From assembly GCA_041742355.1 (NCBI GenBank), contig JBGSIV010000304.1, forward strand, positions 1-52,497: a stretch of 52,497 nt of DNA. Direction: 5' to 3'. The position numbers were made by a program. The DNA is from Candidatus Zixiibacteriota bacterium (GTDB taxonomy: Bacteria; Zixibacteria; MSB-5A5; GN15; FEB-12). Below are positions 1-15,000 of the stretch, one piece after another. The stretch's first letter is position 1. The number at the start of each line of letters is the position of its first letter.

Positions 1-3000
1 CACAAAGCCATAGATCTCTGGCCGGTTGCCAAGCGCACGAATTTCTGGAACTCTCAGGACTCATTCCGTAAGGCAGTGGATCTTGATCGGTTCAGGCAAA
101 GTCCGCTCCTCAAGGCGTTCATCAATACCGTTACCACCGACCTATTCGACCAGTTGGTCCGCGTCTCGGATCCAGGGGTTCGAGACAGCGATGGACGGCT
201 CCAGGTGGACCGCGTCATCGTATCCGGCCGGTGCGCCCGCTTTACACCTCTGCAGGATGCCCTAAAAGAGTGTCTGCAGGTTTATACAACGTTGCCCGCT
301 GGAAACACTATCTTTCTCAGCGGATCTGAACAGAAGGATGCTGTGGCAAAGGGAGCACTCTACGCTGCAGCACAGTCGCTGTCGATTAAGCACCGATCGG
401 TGGATGCATACTACGGAGTTCTCTACTTGGCCAAGCCGGGCCAGTACGAGTTCCTCACGGCCCTGCGACCGGGGAATGGCTTGGACCCTGCTCACACAGA
501 GGCTATTGCCAAGCATGTGGGTAACGAACTGCACATCGAGTTCCCACCGCGCGAGATCAGGTACAGTCGCTCGGTTTGGTTGTTGCGCAGCTATACGGAA
601 ACACCGCATGAGGATTTCCTCCGGGAACGCACCGGTATGTTTTCAGACGTCGCCAGGCTCGTCTACGATATGGCACCCCAAGGCCCGCAGTCGATAGTTG
701 TGACCGCGCAGATGCTGCCCGGCAATCGTGTCGGCAAAGTCAGGCTCAAAGTAGGCAATCGGATGACGCAGTACGACAGCGCCAATCAGTCGCTCGAAAT
801 GAACCTGCTTCATGAGGAGAGTATCTGGCCGTTCTGCTCAATGGAATGCCTGCGAAAACACATGAAGGCGCTGTTAGAGGCTGATGACACCACCGGATGG
901 AAGAAACCTCGCTGAGCGGCGGTAGACGCCGGAAACCGTTAGAAGAGGAGACACATGTGGCCAGTCCCCTGTGGACTCAATGCAGACTTTGGGTGGCATT
1001 TGCGATAGCCGCCGTGATAGTGGTATCGGCACTGAGTCCTCTATCGGCAAAAGCTGGTCCTTCAGAGGGTCCCGAAAATGAATCGCCTCCAACAAACCAC
1101 CGGGACACTTCGATGGATAGAACCGTATCGCTCTATGTCATCGATGGTGCTACGAGCGCCCTCTATTCTTTTGGGCAAGGAAGGTTGTTCGCCGTAGCCA
1201 TGATGTCACCAAGCGCCGTGGAGAAACCCGACAAGGTTGCGGCTCCGGTAGGCGGGAACCCTTCCGATCTGTTATCGCACATAGCGAACTCCGACATAGT
1301 GCAGACTCTTTGCTCTAAACTCAAGATTCAGTTGCCTAGGAGAGCCTCCCTTCGGGATTCAGCGCTGGCAGCCTTTAGCAGTGGGGCCGCCGAGAGTGAC
1401 CGCAAGATTTTGGCCTCGGTGTTCGAGAGCGCGGGCCTGCAGTTCAATATTGTCACGACTTCGGGATTTCCAGAACTGGATGAGAGATTTCCCGGAAGTT
1501 CCCCCGGGGACACAGAGCCGTACCGTAAATGGCTTGAAGTGGTTGCGGTAGCCGGAGAACTGAGAGGTTCTATGGCCCAGCTCCCTGATTCTGCTAGCGC
1601 AGAAGGGGAGGAACTGCGGTTTCGCATCCAGCTGGACTCGAGGAGTGCAAACAGGCTGAGCGTTGGAGCTGTGCCGGACTCGGTCTACGACGTACAGGTT
1701 AACGTTTCGAGAATGGAAATTACGGGAGAGGTGCGAAGGAAGAAATCGGTTTCAGCCGATTCTGCTGGGTCAGTCTCCCTTTTCGTTAGGCCAACCGAAG
1801 GTGATCTCTCAGGAGTTGCAGCCCTGCAAAAGACGATTGCACTAAGCGTACCGCCAGAACCGAACCTGCTCACTATGAAGACGATCATCGCGAGCGCCGT
1901 TGTCGCATGCGTCACAGTCGGAATCTTGGCTGTGGTCCTGATCTTCAGGCGACGGCACCAGTTGCATAATGAACTATCTAAAGTCGCAGGGCAGCCTGTG
2001 TATCCGACAATGCCAGCATCAGCCGTCACAAAATGGCCACCGGTAGATCCCGCGGCTCAGGCATCCACGAGGCTGCTTGACGAGATAGCTCGCCAGTATG
2101 GCCTCGAACGGAGAAGCGCTGAAGGGGAACTTGTATCCGCTGTCAAACGCGATCACCTCAGATCACTTGAGTACGATAGGTTTGTGCAATCGTTGTTTCA
2201 GATGTTAAAGTCGTACGACGTACCAGTCGATGTCGATTGCGGAGCGGAGGGTATTCTTGCGGGTATCAAAGGTGCGCTACAGCGGTGGCACACTGAACAG
2301 CAGGCTGCCTTACAGAGCCAGAAGGTTTTCGGGGACGCGCTGCAGCCACTGGTGGCAGGGAGTGGACGATTCAGAGAGTTTTTTGAGCGAGCAGCCTGCA
2401 ATGCTGGCTCCCCTCCTGCATCTCTTGCCCCTGAAGCAGACCAAATCCGCTTGGCATTGCTCGGGCTGGAACTGGGGGTGAGAGACGAAGATCGGTCGAT
2501 TCGGGCCCTTCACAGGGCTGTCCATCGGCTGTTACAGCCGATGGAGGAGAGGGTCTCGCGGTTGGGCGACAGCACTCTCCTGGAATTGTGGGTCACCCTG
2601 CGAGGCTACCTCGGTGATCCGGTTCCTGAGGCTGCGGTAGTGGCGGGTGCTTGCCCCGATCCACTCGATGTCGGTTGCCAGCAGACCGACTTGAGCCAGC
2701 AATGGAAGGCTGAGTTCCGTCGGTCATCTTACCTAGATCGGGTTGATAGTGGTTATCAGGAGTGCGTCCGGCTCGGGTTCCGTATTCGTACGCTCGCAAT
2801 TGTCACTGCGCCGACTGACGATGCTTCGAAGCTCGCCATCCTTACCGAATGTGATATTCTCAGTAGCGCCTTGGCGAGCCACTTGGCGGTGATTCTCGCA
2901 GCTGCAGACCGGATTCCCCACACTCCATATCCAGGCATGCCATTCGATCGGGCATCCATGTCCAGCCAGGGTGATCTAGCCACGCTGAGCCAATCAGAGT

Positions 3001-12000: not shown

Positions 12001-15000
12001 CGACCAACAAGACTCGTAGCGGATTTCATCACGTGTGTGCTCGAACGTACCGAGCTATATTATGAGGACCGCAGGAGCCGGTATACCGGATTCCAGATCA
12101 TAGCGGCGAGCAGCCCGGTTGGGTTTGTTCCCGAACTCAAGACTTCGCTGGAGGACGCAGTGCTACAGCGACTGAGGCCCCGCTACGCACAAATCGAGTT
12201 CGCGTTCCGAATTCATGAACCCCTCGCCGTATTCTTACAGGCCGCTTCCGGTCACCTGCTCGGCGCAGCCCCGTCCGGCCCCTTCCTTATCGGCATCGTT
12301 GACATAGGCGGAGGCACGACCGATACCGCCTTTATCCTTGCGGAATCGGGGAAACCGCTCCGGCTGGTCGGCACCGGCGGCAGCGTCTACGTGGGTGGCT
12401 TAACCTTTGACGCCTGGCTACGATACCGGCTCCAGCGGCGGCCGGTGGAAGCGGAAACGGTGTCTGCGGCGCAGCTGCCGATGACTCGGCTCTCGGATGT
12501 ACTCACTCAGGAGGAGCGCAAACTTTCGGGCGGAGTAGAGAGAAGTCTGTCCAATGACATTGCTTCCTTGAAACATCGTTTGGCACCGTGCGCCCAACCG
12601 TCCCCACCGCCGGCTCCCATGGTACCCCTATCGCCTGCGGCTGAAATGATTGGAATCCCTTCGCGCGAACCGAATAAGGCCGTTATCGCCGCACGCGTTG
12701 CCCAGGTGGCCGAGCGACTCATCCCTGAGGGATCGCAGTGGTCTGCGGCAGAATGGGACTCGCCGGCGACGGTGTCATGGCATCTTCTTTATCCATTCTA
12801 CTCTTCACTCTACGAACAGCTTCTGCGGATCATCGAAGACACGATGGATGAATGCTTCGCGAATATGGACTCCGAAACCATCTTGCCGGTGCCCGTTACC
12901 ATTGTGCTCGCAGGCAACTGCTCTCAGATCGCCGGGTTACCCACCCTGGTCGAAGCTGTCTTCAACGGGTTGTCGAAGGTCCAGCGGATCGCATCCCTCA
13001 AGATCGTCGCTATGCCGCGTCCGAAGGAATCAGTCGCTTTGGGAACGTATGCGGAGGCACAGGGCAGTATCGTTCGTCAACCCGAACCGGGGTTGCCGCC
13101 GTTCTGCATGTATCTCCGGGTTGATTCTGCTGGCTTCGGCGTTCCTCTGGCAACGCTAGTGGACCGCCAGAAGGACCAGTGGGGCATCGTCATCTTTCCC
13201 GAAGGCGCCTTCCACAACGTGCCATCGTCTCAGAAATATCTCGTGCGTGTATTCGCATTACAGGACATTCTGAAAAGGCCAACGGATACCACGGTGAATG
13301 TCTGGCTGAAAATTGGTATCGACGACTTTTCAAGGCGTATCAAGATTATCCCGATTGGTCCGGCGCCGGACAGACTGGCATTCGTCTTGGACCGGCATAC
13401 GCGGCCGTGGGCCCTGGCGTTTTCGACCCCCCAAATAAACCAGCCGATTGACAATATGGATATCGACCTGACAGAACTCACACGATTGATGAAAGAAGCA
13501 ACAGCTGCAATGAAGAACTCATGATTGATCTTGCCAACATCATCGCGCGGGAAACAAGCACATTTCGGGATCGAGTACTATCGCTCATCGATCGAGCGGC
13601 CTCCCGAGGCCTTTTGACTGAGGATGGCCGAGCGAAGCTGACGAATCACATTGTGCTGTGTGTCATGCCTTTGGTGCAGGAGGACGAAATCCGACAGCTT
13701 GCTTCCCTGTCCACACCAGTGGGAACCGTTCCCGAAATCACCACCTCCAGCTACATGGCAGGCGGTACTGAACCGCTCGTTACGTCCTGTAACGCAGATA
13801 ACGCCACAGGGGAACAATCTTCTCCTCCGAGTCTGCCGGAGAGAATTGCCTTTCTCACGGAAGCTGACTCGGATGATCTGCATCGGATCTTGCGTGCCTT
13901 TGTTGATTCGTACGCGCCGGAGGTGAATCCAGAAACTTCAGCGATCGAACAGGCCCTGGTGAAGAACCGCTCAATTGACATTCTCGTCATCCACGCCCCC
14001 CTTGGCGAAGACGCTTCAGCCGCTGTCGGATTTGAACTGGTCTCTCGCCATATGGCGCGGACACGTTTAACGGAAGAGGAGCGTGGGCGCCTGGCGAGTA
14101 TCAATCTCAATTCCGAAGACCGGCCAGGCGTCATCATTCTCGAACTCTCCCCACGTATCTTGATTCGTAACGAGGTGGTTCATGCTGGGCGGGCTGTCAC
14201 GACATGAACCGGCGGCGTTATCCCACTTCACTCGAGTGAGGGTCTCTTTGTGATCATGAAAGTTCTGGTAGTCTGCCTCATCGTAGCGTCAGGAGGTACT
14301 GGCTACTATTACGGATTCGAAAGAACTTTGATGCTTTCGGAGATTGTTGGCTCATCCGACGATCCGACCGTAGAGCTGGCAGTCACCCTTTTCGATTTCG
14401 ACACCGGCTTGACCCGCTACGATCTGTATCACTTGTCCCGACGGGCCCCAGAATGGAGCAGCCGCATGGAGGAGATCGATGCCATGGAAGATTGGGAGGA
14501 GCGGCAGCGGCAGCAGCATCTGCTCACAGCGGAAATGATGCGTGACCCTTCCATGAAGAAGGTCATGAAGAAACTGTTCGGGATCAGTACCAGTGCAGCC
14601 AAAGCGGTACTGAGTGCCGTTTCTAGTTTCAAGTCATTCGGTTTGTTCTAGGCTGTTCTGAGCCTCTCGAATTTCACTTCGGAAATGGCTGCGGTCGCTC
14701 TAAGCCGCAGTTGAGCCATTGCCCCGCACTCATCCACAACTTCGACACGATATGAGTCGCTTTGGGCCCGTTCGTTTCTCACTCAGATAACCTCCTTTAC
14801 GCGAGTTTCCCCCAGCCCTGGTTCACAGATTTGGCGAGGAGTTCTCCTGTTCACAGCAATGCTCCCCATTAGGGTAGCGATTTCTAAGATAGTCCTCGTA
14901 GTTGGATCGGGATTTCCTGCATCCGATTCAGCGTCCGGTAGCAGGGCGCCGAGTTCAAGTCCGTCTCGTAGTATGCAACAATCGGTCGACCGACCTCGAT

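Follow-up and report, generated by a model that had tools for sequence, protein, structure and literature searches.

A probable FtsZl1-vWA-type gene cassette with Hsp70-like ATPases in a Candidatus Zixiibacteriota bacterium

Predicted operons combining FtsZl1 with vWA proteins were proposed in 2010 by Makarova and Koonin (Biol Direct 5:33, PMC2875224), who argued from gene context for a membrane-remodelling role and whose introduction mentions that tubulin relatives segregate plasmid and phage DNA. Their neighbour table places a DnaK-annotated gene (amb2961, 1626 aa) and a GrpE-annotated one (Cagg_1315, 1083 aa) beside FtsZl1, and Hsp70 is not discussed in the accessible part of the text. Kaur, Burroughs, Iyer and Aravind (2020, eLife 9:e52696, PMC7159879) linked components of the tubulin and HSP70 type with conflict systems built around a GTPase; planctomycetes, verrucomicrobia and chloroflexi are among the groups with DO-GTPase/GAP1-N2 systems, and in the available portion of that article the themes of tubulin and of HSP70/GrpE are called "non-overlapping". 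Because the 2010 operons, the 2020 survey of conflict systems and the classical FtsZ-FtsA pair precede our analysis, the claim that the coupling of a tubulin-superfamily to an Hsp70-superfamily protein is new was overstated; the accompanying remark that this association is already visible in a supplementary table of 2010 is correct, as amb2961 illustrates. The type of gene cluster to which this cassette belongs, as a rare variant, has come to light in computational surveys alone.

The window, i.e. the whole stretch of 52,497 nucleotides that was analysed (contig C304), is filled from 1 to 14651 by ten tightly spaced ORFs on the plus strand (Table 1). With the starts of g34 and g29 corrected to 10252 (the 1090-aa form) and 3149, as suggested by homologues and reading frames, the spacing between genes from g27 to g36 is -19, -4, 17, 20, -4, 10, 22, -4 and 42 nt, so the tight packing noted in the survey's finding stands, and its range of 0-45 nt gives way to overlaps of up to 19 nt and a largest gap of 42 nt. 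All ten ORFs are long and none contains a frameshift or an internal stop. The single-direction, low-GC character of the run was borne out: its GC content is 0.564 against 0.604 for the genome, a value this low or lower being found in 3.5% of 836 genome windows of 14.65 kb, and it climbs to about 0.61 beyond 16 kb, where the remainder of the window (16-52 kb) encodes ordinary metabolism and not a defence island. As reported before, PADLOC gave no match at E<=0.01 for the ten window proteins. Pfam and NCBIfam scans of the block proteins detected neither a nuclease, NADase, pore or other recognisable effector domain nor a stator-like protein, no GrpE-like protein was found by hhalign, Pfam or NCBIfam, and a motif scan for Walker A (0 of 13 proteins) brought up no P-loop GTPase. 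The four sequencing runs listed for the stretch are all registered as DNA, none as RNA. Membrane segments are predicted in at least five window proteins by a hydropathy scan, the sole source of the topologies given here, which supports the earlier view that membrane or exported proteins are encoded beside cytoplasmic NTPases.

Table 1. Genes of the block, with positions in the window.
Gene	Position	Strand	Description
g27	1..915	+	Second giant Hsp70/actin-fold ATPase, C-terminal 304 aa; truncated by the contig start
g28	897..3152	+	751 aa; strong hydrophobic segments 31-49 and 330-348 (hydropathy); C-terminal part of ~400 aa
g29	3149..4582	+	N-terminal zinc ribbon (CPRC...CPYC), then ~430 aa without assigned fold
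g30	4600..5841	+	Exported divergent vWA-like protein: signal peptide, MIDAS, second domain, C-terminal membrane helix, short tail
g31	5862..6275	+	Small membrane protein, four hydrophobic segments (hydropathy); conserved in the L022 cassette
g32	6272..9460	+	FtsZl1/Tubulin_2 GTPase-like, 1062 aa; tubulin-like domain 18-388, then long helix-rich C-terminal region
g33	9471..10229	+	Membrane-anchored trypsin-fold protein, catalytic site inactivated; one N-terminal TM 24-42 (hydropathy)
g34	10252..13524	+	1090 aa: zinc ribbon, ~450-aa beta-rich region, Hsp70-type NBD, ~150-aa C-terminal domain
g35	13521..14207	+	228-aa soluble protein; start overlaps g34 stop by 4 nt
g36	14250..14651	+	133 aa, N-terminal membrane segment (hydropathy); final gene of the run

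The assignment of g32 to Tubulin_2 was reproduced (E 1.3e-20, 74.4 bits for a cut-off of 27). Its T1-like GVGTSG and T4-like GGTCSG motifs line up with those that read GLGGxG and GGTGSG in other Tubulin_2 proteins. Since the tubulin encoded on L022, an unrelated metagenome contig (24% identity over the full length), also departs from GGTGSG in its T4 motif (GGTSSG), this departure is a subfamily trait.

For g34, the relation to Hsp70 proved stronger than claimed. Pfam returned, as already described, weak matches only (FtsA, Volactin, HSP70 and DZR, with the lowest E value, 0.002, for FtsA). Searching with the family profile gives the DnaK NBD at E 3.2e-24; E656 falls on DnaK E171 and D684/T689 on D194/T199, and 59/60 among the PDB matches listed are named Hsp70-family chaperones. 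When applied to the genome itself, this profile places the two canonical Hsp70s (E 1e-14) ahead of MreB (E 8e-6). The rarity of the family was recovered with two full-length members at 30% identity, the number of members at E<=1e-3 among 1.84e9 representative proteins being 21 including g34 itself and not 19. The alignment of 13 sequences shows no variation in the four ribbon cysteines or in the P1, P2 and adenosine motifs, and D484, G486, D684, G686-T689, D691, G888 and N889 are conserved throughout; T487, previously counted among the invariant residues, is kept in at least 90% of the sequences.

The Hsp70-like call of g27, which earlier relied on motifs, gained support from a second contig of the same genome. 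In hhalign, VIVSGRCARF...KDAVAKGALYAA of g27 corresponds to the adenosine motif LLAGNASRL...PKxxVALGAY of the g34 family (E 3e-4, probability 39%), and HSP70 clusters make up 11 of 30 ESM Atlas matches, at 0.92; the predicted structure is unusable (pLDDT 40). Contig C99 terminates in an 841-aa N-terminal portion of an Hsp70-like ATPase, complementary to g27, which aligns with the g34 family at a probability of 97.3% (E 2e-11) and has intact ATPase motifs. Most likely g27 continues on C99, the contig ends sharing no sequence overlap. A CxxC motif scan finds no zinc ribbon in the C99 part, so that, contrary to the description of two giant Zn-ribbon ATPases, only g34 carries one. Directly upstream of the ATPase part lies a gene for a TonB_C protein and, farther off, a large serine recombinase (Resolvase E 7e-20) and an rve_3 transposase fragment. 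PADLOC gave one weak match for the C99 part (PDC-M61B, E 6e-4).

The membrane-anchored vWA protein seen in g30 was confirmed as a divergent vWA. Its MIDAS residues (D30xS32xS34, T134, D167) are intact, ILFDNSxSM, T134, D167 and D171 are invariant in an alignment of eight family members, and hhalign against five Pfam-verified vWA proteins neighbouring Tubulin_2 genes gives a probability of 83% (E 8.9e-6, 128 columns). Pfam VWA_2 reaches only E 0.2, in 2/8 members, and the predicted structure (pLDDT 34) is an unusable model. The neighbouring g31 is 27% identical to L022:5741-6121 (E 1.8e-8). For g33, described as a membrane-anchored trypsin-like protease, the fold and the anchor were retained and the protease activity was not: it is 27% identical to L022:9216-9992, which matches Trypsin_2 at E 1e-16 and retains the catalytic His and Ser, and g33, aligned pairwise with it, carries Tyr at the position of His (TSAYV versus TAAHV) and Ile at that of Ser (QLIGGP versus GFSGGP), Asp being kept. 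A proteolytic step is therefore excluded in this copy of the cassette.

Of the other four genes, g28, g35 and g36 are without family. No match to g28 was found in Pfam, NCBIfam, PADLOC or ESM Atlas, nor to GrpE by hhalign. The ribbon of g29, found by a regular expression (CxxC...CxxC), matches Zn_ribbon_3 at E 9.6e-5, under the Pfam cut-off, and it alone aligns with the g34 family by hhalign. Neither g35 (GrpE hhalign probability 0.2%) nor g36 belongs to a family of Pfam, NCBIfam or PADLOC.

L022 carries the closest full-length homologue of g34 and presents the same gene order: two vWA-like genes, the small TM protein, Tubulin_2, the trypsin-like and the Zn-ribbon Hsp70-like gene, with protein identities of 24-33%. 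The pairing of tubulin and Hsp70-like ATPase is thus conserved as had been proposed, in a single second locus, L022 being the only g34-family context that was retrievable (1/1). There the cassette has a GC content of 0.32-0.38, compared with 0.53 for the adjoining housekeeping genes that flank it, and the 23 kb seen contain no recombinase. None of the 60 relatives (three of the same genus) and none of the 284 other genomes of the phylum has a full-length g34 homologue. Given these absences and the low GC of the block, it is probably an accessory unit that was transferred horizontally, in agreement with the mobility suggested before. Tubulin_2 occurs in 9/285 phylum genomes, and no Hsp70-like ORF lies near it in the retrieved flanks of the eight others, two of which are only 4-6 kb long. 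Two other Tubulin_2-vWA loci of the phylum adjoin an HEPN_Swt1-SNF2 helicase (L057) and a deaminase-REC protein with a DEAD/MZB helicase (L056), surroundings that favour a conflict role. Neither tblastn of g32 and g34 against 72,556 plasmid records nor scans of 2.9 million viral contigs with g30 and g34 alignment motifs gave a match.

Taken together, these data lead us to propose, with a probability of about 0.5, that the block was acquired horizontally, spans the envelope and represents a variant of the FtsZl1(Tubulin_2)-vWA clusters, with conflict or the response to envelope damage as its likeliest role. That it is such a variant with dedicated Hsp70-like ATPases is held with good confidence; a function in conflict or defence, predicted from the gene content, is tentative. 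Its conserved core would comprise five genes (exported vWA-like, small polytopic membrane protein, FtsZl1, membrane-anchored trypsin-fold and zinc-ribbon Hsp70-NBD ATPase), and g27 with its C99 part, the TonB_C protein, the Zn-ribbon protein g29, g28, g35 and g36 would be lineage-specific extras. The periplasmic vWA domain with its intact MIDAS, the dead trypsin fold and the TonB-like C-terminal domain may bind envelope or foreign ligands, and the signal could be relayed inward by single membrane helices and the 4-TM protein. FtsZl1 would then assemble in a GTP-dependent manner on the cytoplasmic face, and the Hsp70-like ATPases might load, remodel or dismantle this assembly, as FtsA does with FtsZ or Hsp70 with a client. 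In bringing together vWA, peptidase, Zn ribbon and NTPases, the cassette fits the pattern in the accessible part of PMC7159879; the effector domain, PADLOC match (E<=0.01) and defence-island surroundings missing from the window speak against the proposal, as do the support of the cassette by one further locus and the eight other Tubulin_2 genomes whose retrieved flanks lack an Hsp70-like ORF.

Those same missing effector domains (Pfam, NCBIfam, PADLOC), together with the membrane segments and the role argued from gene context in PMC2875224, would suit a non-defensive machine for membrane remodelling or vesicle biogenesis, in which the tubulin-like protein shapes the membrane with the help of chaperone-like ATPases, while the vWA and TonB-like proteins tie it to the envelope. 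We consider this less likely: the cassette is found in 1/285 phylum genomes and in none of the three other genomes of the genus, two unrelated hosts both carry it as an island of low GC, and the literature searched holds no experiment on any FtsZl1 operon. Such a sparse presence and the low-GC islands are easier to reconcile with an accessory role or one in conflict than with a role in cell biology.

The lost His and Ser of g33, kept in the L022 orthologue, could also be the first sign that a transferred cassette is decaying, and the GGTCSG of g32 may be read likewise. This seems improbable, since the ten ORFs are intact and tightly coupled, g34 and g27 preserve their ATPase motifs and the T4 motif is altered in L022 as well; moreover, inactive peptidase domains commonly serve as binding modules. 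Even harder to sustain is the view that an integrated mobile element uses the cassette for its maintenance or segregation, in the manner of the plasmid and phage tubulins TubZ or PhuZ. The recombinase and transposase fragment on C99, probably joined to the cassette, and the DNA segregation by tubulin relatives (PMC2875224) agree with it, but no adaptor that binds DNA came to light, membrane-bound or exported proteins make up half of the set, and the FtsZl1-type tubulin has a vWA partner. Plasmid and viral collections gave no match, and the L022 cassette sits amid housekeeping genes without a recombinase in the 23 kb at hand.

What the analysis adds is the order vWA-like/TM/Tubulin_2/trypsin-like/Zn-ribbon Hsp70-like shared with L022, a low-GC island there too, together with the probable continuation of g27 on C99, the loss of the g33 catalytic site and the recognition of g30 as a divergent vWA. 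FtsZ and FtsA form the classical pair of a tubulin-fold GTPase and an actin-fold ATPase, and here likewise a tubulin-fold GTPase is encoded beside an actin/Hsp70-superfamily ATPase that would work at the membrane; the g34 family is, however, far nearer to the Hsp70 NBD (E 3e-24) than to FtsA or MreB, and the cassette proteins are three times larger, accessory and outside a dcw context. As in the FtsZl1-vWA operons, so far as the accessible part of PMC2875224 describes them, the Tubulin_2 protein is giant and carries its GTPase-like domain at the N terminus, with a long helical region towards the C terminus; a vWA protein whose MIDAS is intact is encoded just upstream, several lineage-specific membrane proteins accompany them, and the distribution is patchy. 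The P-loop GTPase, protein kinase and OmpA-family protein of those operons are missing here, and the cassette has instead a pair of giant Hsp70-NBD ATPases, a protein of trypsin fold and, in all probability, one with TonB_C. The DO-GTPase/GAP1-N2 systems, in the available portion of PMC7159879, are similarly membrane-proximal and NTP-dependent, with tubulin homologues bearing coiled-coil or helical tails, TM vWA proteins, zinc ribbons, trypsin-like peptidases and HSP70-type ATPases; in contrast to them, the present cassette has neither the defining DO-GTPase nor a GrpE-like protein, and it unites the tubulin and HSP70 themes in one cassette.

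The left part of the window is occupied by a block of ten ORFs that are all read in the same direction (see the table). The start of g34, the gene of the Hsp70-like ATPase, is better placed at the zinc ribbon, where all homologues begin, and that of the zinc-ribbon protein g29 was corrected as well; with these starts, neighbouring genes of the cassette overlap by 4-19 nt or are spaced by 10-42 nt. The GC content of the cassette is 0.564 against 0.604 for the genome, a value as low or lower being found in 3.5% of 836 windows of the same length, and it is back to about 0.61 from 16 kb onward. 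The remaining window contains genes for ordinary metabolism and surface proteins, no tRNA gene was found, and a scan for terminators and promoters at the right end of the cassette gave counts at chance level. An ORF with FG-GAP/VCBS repeats lies just past the cassette, within the low-GC stretch. Farther along, three surface-type giants are encoded, and a bactofilin-domain ORF is preceded by genes for an ECF-type sigma factor and a DUF4097 protein. The lowest-GC windows of 14.65 kb in the genome (0.52-0.55) are located on another contig, C191, which may represent another foreign island. Short contigs from sequencing run X3, which belongs to a study other than the probable source, match parts of the cassette with several silent-looking differences in the tubulin-like gene g32 and the trypsin-fold gene g33, suggesting at the sequence level that a close relative of the cassette exists elsewhere. 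Among the sequencing runs listed as containing the stretch, none is of RNA.

Location of the cassette and of the other features discussed in the text
Feature	Location	Strand	Description
Cassette, g27 to g36	window 1-14651	+	ten ORFs, the first (g27) open at the contig start
g29, better start	window 3149	+
g34, better start	window 10252	+	1090-aa form
Region matched by X3 contigs	window 6551-12385		parts 90-100% identical to short contigs
ORF past the cassette	window 15077-15682	-	201 aa, FG-GAP/VCBS repeats
Surface-type giant	window 18958-21105	+	715 aa, LVIVD repeats
Surface-type giant	window 22977-25778	+	933 aa, DUF7901 with dockerin
Surface-type giant	window 43803-47294	+	1163 aa, thrombospondin type-3 repeat
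Bactofilin-domain ORF	window 51309-52497	+	396 aa, E 9e-10, reaches the window end
C99 ORF	C99 2-2524	-	841 residues, leaves the contig end
Lectin/CARDB protein	C99 (L063: 7724-13918)	+	2064 aa, dockerin at its end
Hsp70-NBD protein	C139:47586-50093 (L067)		836 aa, Pfam HSP70 at positions 2-373 (E 3e-76)
Tandem Tubulin_2 genes	G140:C16:80000-112000 (L060/L061)		three genes, products of 1170, 1334 and about 1400 aa

Taken as a single sequence, g34 gives weak Pfam matches (FtsA 0.002, Volactin 0.01, HSP70 0.012, DZR 0.021) and reaches DnaK at E 0.05 among PDB sequences. A HMMER search of 1.84e9 representative proteins returned a family of 21 members at E<=1e-3, g34 included, ten of them at E<=1e-10 and two being full-length homologues with 30% identity. 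When the 13 near-full-length members were aligned, the four ribbon cysteines were invariant, together with D484, G486, N489, E656, D684, G686-T689 (GGGT), D691, G888 and N889. The profile of this family matches residues 4-309 of the DnaK NBD at E 3.2e-24 and 125 PDB sequences at E<=1e-3, named Hsp70-family chaperones making up 59 of the best 60 rows, and its motifs DFGTsNs, idEslAa and VyDfGGGTTD align on D8/T11, E171 and D194-D201 of DnaK. In the genome, the profile ranks g34 ahead of two canonical Hsp70 genes (2e-14 and 4.5e-13), an ORF at the end of another contig, C99 (2e-8), a third Hsp70-NBD protein (1e-7) and MreB (8e-6). Judged from these alignments, g34 carries a true Hsp70-type NBD. 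Since Pfam HSP70 reaches only 14.3 bits on g34, below the cut-off of 20.6, and since none of the best 60 PDB rows matches past DnaK residue 370, so that all lie inside the NBD, g34 is by its sequence not a canonical (DnaK/HscA-type) Hsp70 chaperone. Contig C139 of the same genome encodes a protein in which an Hsp70 NBD is the only domain recognised, the other 460 or so residues being without assigned nature.

Other searches with g34 returned no further cassette. A word-indexed homologue search with residues 480-1118 retrieved g34 itself only, a scan of genome contigs with the family gave 19 loci of generic Hsp70 similarity, with a tubulin or other cassette gene at none of them, and viral contigs scanned with the g30 and g34 alignments gave no match. 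A GrpE-like partner was also sought among the small or unassigned proteins g28, g29, g31, g35 and g36; compared by hhalign with 14 GrpE sequences of the order, they reached a probability of at most 0.3%, on which their GrpE-likeness was rejected. The sole match of PF01025 in the genome is the canonical grpE beside dnaK. Compared with PDB sequences, g29 gave no match and g28 a single, chance-like PCNA row; g28 had no usable match in the ESM Atlas.

The left end of the cassette appears to continue on C99. The ORF leaving the end of this contig, found by the g34-family profile, contains an N-terminal region of about 470 aa followed by the motifs DFGTS, SESDA and YDIGAGTVD, ends about 100 residues past phosphate-2 and matches the g34 family with an hhalign probability of 97.3% (E 2e-11). 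The part of g27 present in the window begins without those motifs, has an adenosine motif 72 residues in (E 3e-4) and lies near HSP70 clusters in the ESM Atlas. On these motifs, the C99 ORF and g27 are probably the two parts of one protein of about 1,150-1,200 aa, the contigs being joined there. A gap remains between them, because their ends have zero overlap and are out of frame when simply abutted; among contigs assembled from runs X1-X3 none spans the window's left end or extends beyond it, and a search for longer homologues of g27 found none. The single-sequence AF2 model of g27 (pLDDT 40) is unusable. Because the C99 part contains no CxxC pair, this second ATPase would have no zinc ribbon, and the survey's finding of two zinc-ribbon ATPases is reduced to g34. 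Upstream of the C99 ORF, on the same strand, a 424-aa protein combines a TM segment with a TonB_C domain that scores 35.2 bits (cut-off 24.6; E 1.8e-8). Farther along C99, which is also low in GC (0.558), small ORFs, an rve_3 fragment, the divergent lectin/CARDB/dockerin protein listed in the table and a large serine recombinase are found. Against PADLOC, the C99 ORF gave one weak match (PDC-M61B at 6e-4).

For the tubulin-like protein g32, the match to Pfam Tubulin_2 (PF13809) reaches 74.4 bits (cut-off 27; E 1.3e-20), residues 18-388 covering positions 1-351 of the 356 of the profile; it was also obtained in a six-frame search of the genome. In an alignment with eight other Tubulin_2 proteins, its T1-like loop reads GVGTSG (signature GxGxxG). 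The T4-like loop, for which GGGTG(S/T)G was taken as the FtsZl1 signature, is GGTCSG in g32, GGTSSG in its counterpart on L022, an unrelated metagenome contig, and GGTG[SGA]G in seven other Tubulin_2 proteins of the phylum. After the GTPase domain, FtsZl1 proteins are expected to have a coiled-coil region and an alpha-helical C-terminal domain; in g32 the corresponding 650 or so residues would be helix-favouring, as judged from composition alone, with E/K/R/Q/L/A abundant (0.51-0.53) and G/P scarce at residues 401-600 and 701-800. No match of g32 was obtained among PDB sequences, no relative in a scan of genome contigs, and none for g32 and g34 in a tblastn search of plasmids. A predicted-complex run with residues 452-1090 of g34 and 760-1062 of g32 scored 0.00, which speaks neither for nor against binding.

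Like the predicted FtsZl1-vWA operons, the cassette pairs the tubulin-like gene with a vWA-like gene, g30, which lies two genes upstream of g32. The g30 protein begins with a signal-peptide-like segment and ends in a hydrophobic helix followed by a short tail. ILFDNSxSM, T134, D167 and D171, among them the MIDAS residues, are invariant in all eight members of its family. When g30 was compared by hhalign with five Pfam-verified vWA proteins adjoining Tubulin_2 genes of the phylum, 128 columns covering all three MIDAS elements were aligned with a probability of 83% (E 8.9e-6). With Pfam, VWA_2 matched two members of the g30 family at E 0.2 only and the VWA threshold was not reached; the AF2 model from three sequences (pLDDT 34) is unusable. 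The product of g33 has a single N-terminal membrane segment and no Pfam match of its own at E<=0.1, and is 27% identical to its L022 orthologue, which matches Trypsin_2 at E 1e-16. In their pairwise alignment the triad positions are Tyr, Asp and Ile in g33 against His, Asp and Ser in the orthologue. Because Tyr and Ile replace the catalytic His and Ser, g33, which had been taken for a trypsin-like protease, is on this alignment a pseudo-protease that has kept the fold.

The cassette was compared with the context of one other g34-family member, the closest full-length homologue (P0003) on L022. On one strand of this contig, two genes resemble g30 (33% identity) and one resembles g31 (27%); they are accompanied by a Tubulin_2 gene, a trypsin-like gene and a gene for a 1054-aa zinc-ribbon Hsp70-like protein. 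The Tubulin_2 protein (1019 aa, E 7.6e-27) is 24% identical to g32 over the full length, and the GC content of this second cassette is 0.32-0.38, the adjoining IspD, CarA, CarB and PurF genes being at 0.53. Homologues of g27, g28, g29, g35, g36 or the C99 genes were not found in L022, from which the conserved core, as delimited by sequence, is set at five gene families, encoding an exported vWA-like protein, a small membrane protein, FtsZl1, a trypsin-fold protein and a zinc-ribbon Hsp70-like ATPase, the other genes being lineage-specific.

The g34 query matched none of 60 relatives, including three genomes of the same genus. Its family profile matched 268 of 285 phylum genomes at E<=1e-8, with a full-length match only in the genome studied here. 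Among the best 19 other phylum loci, 17 share 47-79% identity with the DnaK of this genome and two share 40% and 32%; a related Hsp70-like family was rejected on this identity, which points to Hsp70 genes of the ordinary kind and their paralogues. Nine of the 285 genomes contain Tubulin_2. In the eight others no ORF matching the g34 profile (E<=1e-3) was found in the flanks retrieved, two of which are short (4.1 and 5.8 kb). In four of these genomes the tubulin gene has a Pfam vWA gene as its immediate neighbour, and in one such a gene lies two genes off. Tubulin_2-vWA pairs lie beside a 1196-aa HEPN_Swt1-SNF2 helicase at L057 (G074:C10), and beside a receiver/adenosine-deaminase protein and a DEAD/MZB helicase at L056 (G205:C18). 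One phylum genome has three tandem Tubulin_2 genes, one of which is a direct vWA-Tubulin_2 fusion, with another vWA gene and a CAP-domain gene upstream.

The families expected from related systems were searched for in the cassette. P-loop GTPases, Ser/Thr kinases and OmpA proteins had no Pfam or NCBIfam match at E<=0.1 in the ten window proteins. On C99 they had no match either, the threshold being E<=0.01 for the first two genes and E<=1e-5 for the third. The Walker A motif [AG]xxxxGK[ST] is absent from all 13 cassette proteins (ten from the window, three from C99), and no GTPase family was matched. Pfam, NCBIfam and PADLOC gave no match to a MotA/ExbB/TolQ channel or a MotB/ExbD partner in the window proteins, and none was obtained on C99, where only a TonB_C domain is present; a Zorya-type or MotAB/ExbBD stator was rejected on these results. 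PADLOC gave nothing at E<=0.01 on the window proteins.

From the parts and their order, which are observed, we infer the following topology, complex and function. The vWA domain, the inactive trypsin fold, the TonB-like domain and a loop of g28 would form a periplasmic layer, linked by single helices and the 4-TM protein g31 to a cytoplasmic layer, where FtsZl1 may assemble with GTP and the Hsp70-like ATPases may load or remodel it. A role in conflict or damage response is our tentative reading, with a probability of roughly 0.4. The alternative that the cassette performs constitutive membrane remodelling is rather unlikely, its sporadic, island-like occurrence in two hosts favouring conflict or damage response; the choice is less settled in view of the lack of a recognisable effector in the cassette and of defence neighbours in the window. 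A more specific version of the conflict or damage-response reading is doubtful: the five-gene core could work on its own, devoid of the DO-GTPase/GAP1 switch, as an immune or repair machine that spans the envelope, in which a dedicated Hsp70-type ATPase would directly nucleate or dismantle a tubulin-like polymer at the membrane on a periplasmic signal. If true, a pair resembling FtsZ/FtsA would have been turned to use in conflict.

FtsZl1 was defined by Makarova and Koonin 2010 (PMC2875224), whose text, in the parts available, describes operons in which vWA proteins occur and in which P-loop GTPases, Ser/Thr kinases and OmpA-family proteins are frequent, though not obligatory, companions, proposes membrane remodelling and leaves open whether FtsZl1 polymerises at all. 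Sixteen years on, it is known in searchable papers from sequence and gene context only. As the core is compact and conserved and places FtsZl1 beside one Hsp70-type ATPase, together with exported vWA and protease-fold proteins, the cassette is tractable for studying FtsZl1 filaments, their Hsp70-like control, and immunity versus membrane repair. No paper describing the cassette was found in the searchable literature (FtsZl1, PF13809 and tubulin-Hsp70-vWA contexts). That the cassette is real and rare is confirmed by the ten-ORF low-GC block and by a full-length g34 in one of 285 phylum genomes; the survey's finding of a first coupling of tubulin and Hsp70 superfamilies was overstated, since the neighbour table in supplement 5 of PMC2875224, as far as excerpted, already includes a 1626-aa DnaK-annotated and a 1083-aa GrpE-annotated gene, and the available portion of Kaur et al. 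2020 (PMC7159879) reports both themes, tubulin in 52% and HSP70/GrpE in 14% of GAP1-N2 neighbourhoods, non-overlapping. Set beside that portion, our data indicate that the two themes can co-occur without the defining GTPase core.

Compared with known systems, the cassette is a variant of the FtsZl1-vWA kind that is itself new. It shares Tubulin_2 and the upstream vWA-like gene with the FtsZl1-vWA operon, whereas the frequent GTPase, kinase and OmpA companions were not found. The DO-GTPase/GAP1 systems, as described in the portion of the literature available, contain a GAP1 protein with GAP1-N, -M and -C domains and, unlike the cassette, which is devoid of any Walker A, also DO-GTPases of the TRAFAC type, one or two in number, that carry Walker A/B motifs. 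Canonical Hsp70s of the DnaK/HscA type score above the Pfam HSP70 cut-off and carry an SBD after the NBD, whereas g34 remains below this cut-off and is encoded in a cassette in which no GrpE-like protein was found.
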